From positions 1 to 25,733 of the forward strand of contig JAJXZU010000164.1 of NCBI GenBank assembly GCA_021779895.1: DNA of 25,733 bases. Reading direction: 5' to 3'. Below are positions 5,144 through 7,177 of the stretch, one piece after another. The position numbers and the translations under genes are program-made. The notes beneath the pieces were generated by a model. That model made no database searches and was not told where the DNA came from. It was given only the letters and a program-made list of their open reading frames with translations. This DNA is from a bacterium. Lineage in GTDB: Bacteria; SZUA-79; Acidulodesulfobacterales; Acidulodesulfobacteraceae. Numbering within the stretch: the first letter of the stretch is position 1; every line of letters begins with the position of its first letter.

Positions 5144-7177
5144 ATGGAAAAAAATGAAAACGGTTTAATTCAGGAACAGGAAGAAGATTCACAGATTCAA
5201 AAAGGAACTACAAGGCGCGGATTCTTATCCACTATGGGCAAGATTGCGGCGGCGGCGGGACTTTTGGGGTCAGGAGCGGGAATGGAAGCTCTGTCGGGAT
5301 GCGCAAAAGGGCCTTCCGGCACTGCGACATCAAGCGTTTCGGCTTCGGTCGCAAAAGCCTTAGTAGCTCCCGGAAAATGGGATAAGTATATGGGATTCTG
5401 GAGCGCCGGTCCGTCCGGCGAAGTCAGGGTTAAAGGCATTCCTTCGATGAGGACGCTTTTGAGAATACCGGTATTTAACAACGATACGGGAAGGGGCTAC
5501 GGGCTTACGGGCGATGACCAGAGCGAAAAGATGCTTCAGGATGCCGGCGGATATTATGAGGGCGATACCCATCATCCGCATCTTTCTTATACTAACGGGG
5601 ATTTTGACGGCAGGTACGTTTTTATCAACGATAAATCCGCAGGAAGGGTTGCAAGAATCAGGCTTGACTATTTTCAGACCGACGCCATTACCGCCCTGCC
5701 TAACGTTTCTGCAGTTCACGGCATAGCTACCCAGAGACATCCGAAAACAAACTATGTATTTGCTACAAGCGAATTTCCTATACCTATCCCAAATAACGGC
5801 CAGGATATAGTCCCTACCGGAAATAATGCGGCGGAAACAAAAAATTACTGGTCTTTGCTCAGCGCCGTCGATGCGGAAACTATGGAAGTTAAGTGGCAGG
5901 TGCTGGTTGACGGAAACCAGGATAATATGTGCACCGACTATCAAGGCAATTATGTAGCTTCGACATGCTACGACCCGTCTAAAGGATGGGACGTCCCTAC
6001 GATAACTAAACCTCCGGTTGCGTGGGCGGTTTTCGTTAACATACCGAGGGTGGAGGCGGCGGTAAAAGCAGGGAAATATAAAACGATGGGTGGGTCTTCG
6101 GTTCCCGTAGTCGACGGCAGGCACGGCTCGGATTTAACCGCTTATATTCCAGTAGAAAAGGACCCTCACGGAATATCGCCTACGCCTGACGGAAAATATT
6201 TCGTAGCAAACGGCAAGCTTGCTCCGAAAGTTACCGTCATAAATTTAGAAAAAGTAGGACAAGTATTTGAAGGCAAATTAAAACCTAAAGATGCAGTCGA
6301 TGCCGTTCTTACGGTCGGCGTCGGCCCTCTGCATACCGTATATGACGGCAGGGGACATGCCTATACTACTCTTTTCGTCGATTCCCAGATGGTTAAATGG
6401 AATATCGAGGACGCGATTAAGGCTTATCACGGCGACAAAAAAGTTAAACCGATAATACAAAAGTTAGACGTTCAATATCAGCCTGGCCACAATGCGGCAA
6501 CCCAGAGCGATACTAAAAATCCTACGGGGGAATGGCTCGTAAGCTTGAATAAATTCTCTAAAGACAGGTTCTTGCCGGTTGGACCGAGATTCCCCGAAAA
6601 CGATCAACTGATAGACATATCGGGCCACAAAATGGTCCTTGTCTCCGACAACCCTGTTTATATAGAGCCTCATCAGGCTACCATAGCTCTTGCCGACAGG
6701 ATAAAATACGCCAAAAAAGTTTACGACCCGAAATATTTTGCAAACCATGTCGCGGCGGGAACGGAAGGCGTAAAGCGCATCGGACCGCACAGGGTAATAG
6801 TCCGGCTTACAGGCGTCGCTCCGACTTTAACCCCCGTTTATTTTCACGTTAAAGAAGGCGACGTCGTAACCGTAATTTACTCTAATAACGATACGGTAGA
6901 AAATCTTGCCCACGGATTCAATATGACCCTTCACGGGAAGAACGTCAATATCGATCCGGGCGAAACGAAAGAGATAACGTTTACGGCAGACAGGGCAGGC
7001 GTTTACTGGTATTTCTGCACTATATTCTGCCATGCGCTTCATCTCGAAATGCGCGGCAGAATGATAGTCGAAAAGGTTCCGGGGTATCGTTCGAGACCCA
7101 TTAAGCCGAACAGGCTCAGCGGAAAACCGTCTTTCGACGAAAGATTTAAAGATTTTCCTGAAGTCGGAAAGGCATAA
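5144..7177 (+). CDS. nosZ: Nitrous oxide reductase, clade I (Tat) type
   Basis: TRRGFL Tat motif; RIPVFN; CuZ His motifs DTHHPH, VHG, PHG, GPLHT, QPGHN, EPH; CuA motif AHGF...WYFCTIFCHALHLEM; RBS AGGAGG. Confidence 0.98.
   Translation: MEKNENGLIQEQEEDSQIQKGTTRRGFLSTMGKIAAAAGLLGSGAGMEALSGCAKGPSGTATSSVSASVAKALVAPGKWDKYMGFWSAGPSGEVRVKGIPSMRTLLRIPVFNNDTGRGYGLTGDDQSEKMLQDAGGYYEGDTHHPHLSYTNGDFDGRYVFINDKSAGRVARIRLDYFQTDAITALPNVSAVHGIATQRHPKTNYVFATSEFPIPIPNNGQDIVPTGNNAAETKNYWSLLSAVDAETMEVKWQVLVDGNQDNMCTDYQGNYVASTCYDPSKGWDVPTITKPPVAWAVFVNIPRVEAAVKAGKYKTMGGSSVPVVDGRHGSDLTAYIPVEKDPHGISPTPDGKYFVANGKLAPKVTVINLEKVGQVFEGKLKPKDAVDAVLTVGVGPLHTVYDGRGHAYTTLFVDSQMVKWNIEDAIKAYHGDKKVKPIIQKLDVQYQPGHNAATQSDTKNPTGEWLVSLNKFSKDRFLPVGPRFPENDQLIDISGHKMVLVSDNPVYIEPHQATIALADRIKYAKKVYDPKYFANHVAAGTEGVKRIGPHRVIVRLTGVAPTLTPVYFHVKEGDVVTVIYSNNDTVENLAHGFNMTLHGKNVNIDPGETKEITFTADRAGVYWYFCTIFCHALHLEMRGRMIVEKVPGYRSRPIKPNRLSGKPSFDERFKDFPEVGKA

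Follow-up and report, generated by a model that had tools for sequence, protein, structure and literature searches.

A nitrous-oxide reductase with a twin-arginine motif and a lipobox in its signal peptide, from a genome of the Acidulodesulfobacteraceae

The locus described here raises the question of whether a bacterial clade I nitrous-oxide reductase is free in the periplasm or held at a membrane by a lipid. The window, meaning the whole stretch of DNA that was analyzed, is the 25,733-nucleotide contig JAJXZU010000164.1 (contig C74) of assembly GCA_021779895.1, and nosZ lies at 5144..7177 on its forward strand. Nitrous oxide (N2O) is a greenhouse gas, and nitrous-oxide reductase is its only known biological sink. 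In the literature, clade I reductases are treated as soluble proteins of the periplasm. In this NosZ a twin-arginine motif is followed by a lipobox, both are conserved in close relatives, and genes for lipoprotein processing are present in the source genome. The sequence features suggest that the enzyme is probably exported by the twin-arginine translocation (Tat) system, processed by Lgt and LspA, and anchored by a lipid. Such an anchor, if real, would change where NosZ encounters electron donors and copper chaperones, the way it is purified and assayed, and its response to loss of periplasmic protein, to pH, or to copper limitation.

Signal peptide and lipobox of NosZ

The signal peptide combines a Tat motif with a lipobox. 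A long acidic n-region comes first (residues 1-22, 5144..5209 on the forward strand, as are the other parts of the gene), and in NosZ signals this region is usually long. The twin-arginine motif T23-R-R-G-F-L28 is at 5210..5227, with R24-R25 at 5213-5218. In an alignment of 53 NosZ sequences R25 is invariant and R24 is found in at least 90%. Lys33, an uncharged stretch of 14 residues (I34-M47), and Glu48 follow at 5240..5287, and Glu48 is invariant within the NosZ clade of the query. The lipobox L50-S51-G52-C53 (ctg tcg gga tgc, 5291..5302) fits the pattern [LVI][ASTVI][GAS]C that closes a lipoprotein signal peptide. Signal peptidase II (SPase II) is predicted to cut between G52 and C53, which makes Cys53 the predicted lipidation site. 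The residues after Cys53 are AKGPSGTATSSVSASVAKA, extending to about 5360, and they belong to a linker rich in Ser, Thr, Ala, Gly, and Pro (residues 54-75, about 22 amino acids, 5303..5368) that is predicted to be a flexible tether. The beta-propeller starts directly after it with P-G-K-W-D-K-Y-M-G-F-W-S (5369..5404), of which G77, D80, Y82, G84, W86, and S87 are invariant.

An earlier note on this DNA had described the same order of elements, an arginine pair, a Gly/Ala-rich stretch, the L-S-G-C box, and a Ser/Thr/Ala-rich linker, and all of its coordinates are correct. Its two reservations are also real, namely a Glu in the h-region, at -5 from the cysteine, and a long distance between the arginines and the cysteine. 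The second arginine is 28 residues from Cys53, while Lys33 is 20 residues from it, 14 of them uncharged. Judged from the sequence, counting from Lys33 as the last residue of the n-region would remove most of the distance problem.

The predicted structure is compatible with a signal peptide and a tether. In the AlphaFold2 (AF2) model residues 1-64 have a predicted local distance difference test (pLDDT) score below 50, and order begins with an element at residues 67-72. Disorder of this kind agrees with a signal peptide and a flexible tether behind it. The same model has a helix at residues 24-38, and conservation across the clade is unusually high over the full length of the signal peptide. Both observations would suit an uncleaved Tat signal anchor, in which the stretch I34-G52 would be an N-terminal helix fixing NosZ to the inner membrane, and uncleaved Tat signal anchors are known in other redox proteins. 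However, the stretch is Gly/Ala-rich, includes Glu48, and is mildly hydrophobic, with a Kyte-Doolittle maximum of about 2.1, which is typical for Tat signals. In addition, a perfect lipobox and plausible signal peptidase I (SPase I) sites come after it. A signal anchor is therefore considered very unlikely.

The start codon that places the Tat motif in the protein is well marked. The ATG at 5144 is preceded at 7 nucleotides by the Shine-Dalgarno sequence AGGAGG (5131..5136), a motif that is kept in loci L001-L004. T-R-R-G-F-L is kept in relatives through synonymous codon changes, which indicates that the upstream start is real. With an internal start at Met31 the signal would be of the Sec lipoprotein type (MGK…LSGC); this start was rejected because the ATG at 5234 has no Shine-Dalgarno sequence before it.

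The lipobox is more strictly conserved than the sequence that follows it. The earlier note had looked to conservation of the cysteine in close homologs, and the cysteine, together with L-S-G, is invariant in all eight relatives compared (four database proteins and four genome loci, 77-94% identity). Among five aligned genes the lipobox codons differ only synonymously (CTG/CTA/TTA, TCG/TCC, GGA/GGT, TGC/TGT). The linker 3' of the Cys codon has indels and many replacements, and its sequence and length vary among relatives. This pattern of substitutions indicates that L-S-G-C is maintained by purifying selection. A lipobox cysteine after the hydrophobic stretch of the signal is found in 15 of 121 NosZ proteins. 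Any cysteine upstream of the propeller anchor motif is present in only two of 104 lipobox-free NosZ, and in neither of these is it at the lipobox position. The invariance of Cys53 and L-S-G in the relatives is more than chance.

These data bear on the possibility that NosZ is an ordinary soluble periplasmic enzyme. SPase I would then cut at A-L-S51/G52, G-C-A54/K55, or G-T-A61/T62 (the slash marks the cut), and Cys53 would be a residue of the mature arm that has another role or is merely tolerated. However, among the 121 proteins a cysteine after the hydrophobic stretch occurs only in a lipobox context, and selection appears to act on the box itself. The same L-S-G-C box is shared by other predicted lipoproteins of the source genome, one of which reads …FALSGCAKN. 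The low-complexity, indel-prone linker after the cysteine also resembles that of textbook lipobox NosZ.

Lipobox signals are widespread in clade I NosZ. The N-termini of 182 clade I NosZ were classified, consisting of the 120 best protein matches and species-level genome loci. An arginine pair together with a lipobox is found in 53 of the 182 (about 29%); relatives of the query are over-represented in this sample, and the counts should not be read as prevalence. The strict motif is matched by 39 of the 53, and 51 match the broader Gram-positive lipoprotein pattern. The carriers include 19 loci from Myxococcota, five from Burkholderiales (including Acidovorax and Comamonas), and four from Verrucomicrobiota, as well as Sulfidibacter, Oligoflexia, and Rhodanobacter-like proteins. 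In a FastTree phylogeny built from the mature domain, nine changes of the trait are required, and well-supported branches force at least six of them. The 44 lipobox NosZ outside the query clade have an arginine pair, an uncharged h-region, a lipobox, and a long low-complexity linker, and these textbook signals span at least six independent positions in the tree, suggesting that lipid anchoring of N2O reductase is a recurrent solution. Linker composition was also tried for telling anchored from soluble forms and was rejected, since in soluble forms the 20-residue segment extends into the signal peptide, which confounds the comparison.

Tat-plus-lipobox NosZ is common in bacteria and is not a haloarchaeal peculiarity, so the association of this signal type with haloarchaea in the earlier note was too narrow. 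Neither Tat lipoproteins nor lipobox NosZ are new, and this gene alone adds little. More useful is how broadly lipobox clade I NosZ are spread among bacteria, and some of the carriers are cultured strains. The literature searched yielded papers on haloarchaea, Gram-positive bacteria, and NosL, but none that describes a Tat-lipobox clade I NosZ from bacteria. A bolder interpretation can be offered tentatively: lipid-anchored clade I N2O reductases might form a large, repeatedly evolved, and undescribed class in diderms, with the Glu-type signal of the query clade transitional between SPase I and SPase II processing.

Processing and placement of the signal

The genes needed for lipoprotein processing are present in the source genome or in its genus. 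The source is a 1.1-Mb metagenome-assembled genome (MAG) that is 66% complete and has 39% GC. Profile searches of the MAG gave lspA (110 bits), lgt (194 bits), and tatC (143 bits), all above their cut-offs. Lnt was not found in the MAG at this completeness, but 16 of 18 same-genus genomes have it above the cut-off. LolA was found in six of the eight same-genus genomes searched, and the MAG has a BamA-like gene. The BamA-like gene, together with LolA and Lnt in genus relatives, suggests that the organism is a diderm with a full lipoprotein pathway. A crude scan of the 1.1-Mb MAG gave no other protein with both a Tat motif and a lipobox, so Tat lipoproteins cannot be claimed as a genome-wide habit.

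The contig appears to be correctly binned. The polA gene on the nosZ contig is 75-87% identical to that of 17 of the 18 same-genus genomes. Mis-binning was ruled out by this identity and by the GC content of the window, which ranges from 32 to 47% (mostly 35-43%) and brackets the 39% of the MAG.

If NosZ is a Tat lipoprotein, its maturation can be outlined as follows. Apo-NosZ would fold in the cytoplasm and be exported by TatABC by means of T-R-R-G-F-L. Lgt would put diacylglycerol on Cys53, LspA would cut between Gly52 and Cys53, and a third acyl chain would probably be added by Lnt, which is present in genus relatives. The mature dimer would be tethered to the membrane via lipidated Cys53 and the linkers of about 22 residues. 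It would receive copper from NosL and NosDFY, and NosR or a soluble carrier would pass electrons to it.

Several observations weigh against lipidation. Glu48 is the only acidic residue in such a position among the 53 lipobox NosZ. At -5 it breaks the PROSITE PS00013/DOLOP rule, which allows no charge in the six positions before a lipobox and is a heuristic and not a definition. The other 44 lipobox NosZ have no charge closer than -13, and their distance from the arginine pair to the cysteine is 17-24 residues, versus 28 here. The query clade is the least canonical of the lipobox NosZ sampled. Furthermore, E-A-L-S/G has the same -4/-3/-2/-1 register as E-S-W-A/A of gammaproteobacterial NosZ, a string seen in those sequences that is the presumed SPase I site of the soluble enzyme. 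The nearest outgroup, P0033, keeps the Glu and has no Cys. The Glu, the register shared with ESWA, and the Cys-free outgroup make the signal look like an SPase I site that gained a cysteine. In addition, the MAG is incomplete, and its machinery genes are on other contigs, tied to nosZ by binning alone.

Several of these points also speak for a soluble enzyme. The Glu at -4, small residue at -3, bulky residue at -2, and small residue at -1 relative to the S51/G52 cut resemble a c-region of the ESWA type, and both the singular acidic residue and the outgroup agree with this. Every solved N2O reductase structure is of a soluble enzyme. Set against the conservation and context of the cysteine, these points leave a soluble NosZ unlikely but not negligible. 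A combination of the two fates would arise if SPase I competed with Lgt and LspA, giving soluble and lipid-anchored pools of NosZ. The two types of site overlap within three residues, and the signal looks intermediate between soluble and textbook lipobox forms. However, mixed processing has no direct support in the sequence data, and dual processing is mostly seen in lgt or lsp mutants. It is judged highly improbable.

A lipid-anchored NosZ is the probable outcome, and the corresponding proposal of the earlier note has gained from the conservation of the box, the presence of the machinery, and the parallel cases. Its suggestion of an outer-membrane location needs to be qualified, and NosZ may be in either membrane. 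That suggestion came from Ala at +2, which points to the outer membrane only under the E. coli sorting rule, and this rule may not apply to the present lineage. Lys at +3, as in this NosZ, resembles an inner-membrane retention signal of Pseudomonas. Asp at +2 is seen in none of about nine predicted lipoproteins of the MAG, so they yield no retention rule specific to the lineage. If retained in the inner membrane, NosZ would be beside NosR and NosDFY; if placed in the outer membrane, it would be beside NosL. In Proteobacteria NosL is a predicted outer-membrane lipoprotein (PMC8457098).

The NosZ protein and the nos cluster

By sequence the nosZ product is a clade I, Tat-dependent N2O reductase of 677 amino acids. 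It scores 763.2 bits against the Tat-type model TIGR04244 (cut-off 625), and only 456 bits against the Sec-type model TIGR04246. The Pfam domains nos_propeller, nos_propeller_2, and Cupredoxin_1 are present. Residues 20-644 match the solved N2O reductase structure PDB 9f8x with an E-value of 1.6e-204, and identity to proteobacterial clade I NosZ is about 50-55% among the best protein matches. In the 53-sequence alignment H143, H144, H192, H342, H397, H449, and H510 of the propeller are invariant, as are H590, C625, C629, H633, and M636, and the C-x3-C-H…H…M motif of CuA is present. Based on homology and on the P. stutzeri ligands, these His, Cys, and Met residues presumably form the CuZ and CuA metal sites. 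Antisense open reading frames (ORFs) at 5197-5481 and 5360-6124 lie inside the conserved nosZ frame and were set aside.

The protein has a clade-specific C-terminal extension. It consists of 33 amino acids after the CuA domain (7076..7174, forward strand; VPGYRSRPIKPNRL…FKDFPEVGKA), is kept in P0002-P0005, and is absent in canonical clade I NosZ, which end in …MLVE(K/P)A. The tail of the Firmicutes-like outgroup P0033 differs. Residues 645-650 are within a block with an average AF2 pLDDT of about 83, the average for 651-660 is about 45, and values are below 50 for 654-664 and 666-677.

The gene belongs to a nos cluster. Downstream are nosL, a nosR-like gene, nosD, nosF, nosY, two small ORFs, and apbE. 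NosL (7324..7875, forward strand; Pfam NosL, 1e-40) is a copper-chaperone lipoprotein with the lipobox L-T-A-C27. The nosR-like gene (7959..10046, forward strand) encodes a membrane flavo/FeS protein with a Fer4_5 domain that matches NF046105 at 7e-142, below the cut-off of the model, and it is the likely electron route to NosZ. The two small ORFs between nosY and apbE (13169-13903) look cytoplasmic; the first has a weak match to DUF7342 and the second a weak match to the Pfam toxin family TumE (3.4e-6). The apbE/nosX-like gene (13900..14946, forward strand; Pfam ApbE, 5e-68) encodes a flavin transferase whose N-terminus is short, Sec-type, and lipoprotein-like (…SVFILNSC). Proteobacterial NosX, unlike this protein, has a Tat signal. 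As NosZ, NosL, and the ApbE/NosX-like protein all have lipoprotein-like N-termini, three products of the cluster may be lipid-anchored. Elsewhere in the window, a NarG-like molybdopterin oxidoreductase (3-2099, reverse strand) starts with M-S-F-S-R-R-D-F-L-K, a Tat motif without a lipobox.

The distribution of the cluster does not follow the genus. Searches of 18 further genomes from the genus gave no nosZ. Four genomes, one of them the MAG 'SZUA-79', have the same type of nosZ; their polA is 59-72% identical and their NosZ 77-90% identical. The order nosZ-L-R-D-F-Y is present in L001, L003, and L004, while the shorter L002 has nosZ-L-R and ends after nosR. A same-genus locus (L098, G004:C54:182000-201000, polA 87% identical) was compared with positions 14964-25619 of the window, and no match to the cbb3 oxidase, ccoG, ccoI, or nos genes was found in the 19 kb beyond polA, so the respiratory block is not syntenic within the genus. 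The lack of nosZ in those 18 genomes and the high NosZ identity at low polA identity suggest that the nos cluster is an accessory, horizontally exchanged module of the wider lineage.

Comparison with known systems

The structurally solved enzymes are soluble. NosZ resembles the soluble clade I N2O reductases (PDB 9f8x, 1qni, 3sbp, 5i5i, 2iwf, and 1fwx) in family, fold, Tat motif, and metal-ligand residues, and its cluster has nosR, nosD, nosF, nosY, nosL, and apbE as theirs do. In contrast to the soluble type, in which the signal ends like ESWA/A and has no Cys, the query has LSGC. It also has a linker about 10 residues longer and the 33-residue C-terminal tail.

The haloarchaeal enzymes share the signal type. 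NosZ of Haloferax mediterranei and its relatives is likewise of clade I and has a Tat motif and then a lipobox, and a membrane anchor at the Cys has been proposed in silico (PMC8301774). Haloarchaeal NosZ is enriched in membrane-derived micelles (PMC7754194). Haloarchaea have a single membrane and no homologues of Lgt or LspA, whereas the query comes from a diderm lineage with Lgt, LspA, Lnt, and Lol. The likeness concerns the signal type only. No haloarchaeal sequence is found among the 120 best protein matches or 80 loci.

Other bacterial lipobox NosZ are also parallels. The boxes are LAGC in Rhodanobacter-like proteins, VAAC in Acidovorax, VVGC in Comamonas, and MTGC in Verrucomicrobiota, and further cases are found in Polyangiaceae, other Myxococcota, and Sulfidibacter corallicola. 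Like the query, they have a Tat motif, a lipobox, and a long low-complexity linker. They differ in having no charge within 12 residues of the Cys, where the query has Glu at -5, and in the shorter arginine-to-cysteine distance given above. They share about 45-55% identity with the query and occupy separate positions in the tree.

Membrane association is also known for related systems. In Bacillus azotoformans N2O reductase activity is found in membranes, and the enzyme belongs to a distinct Gram-positive NosZ group with ambiguous Sec/Tat predictions (PMC3475470). AniA of Neisseria is an outer-membrane lipoprotein NirK without a Tat motif (cited in PMC8301774), and it is a different enzyme from NosZ. 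What the B. azotoformans enzyme and AniA have in common with the query, if its predicted anchor is real, is that a normally periplasmic copper enzyme of denitrification is kept at the membrane.

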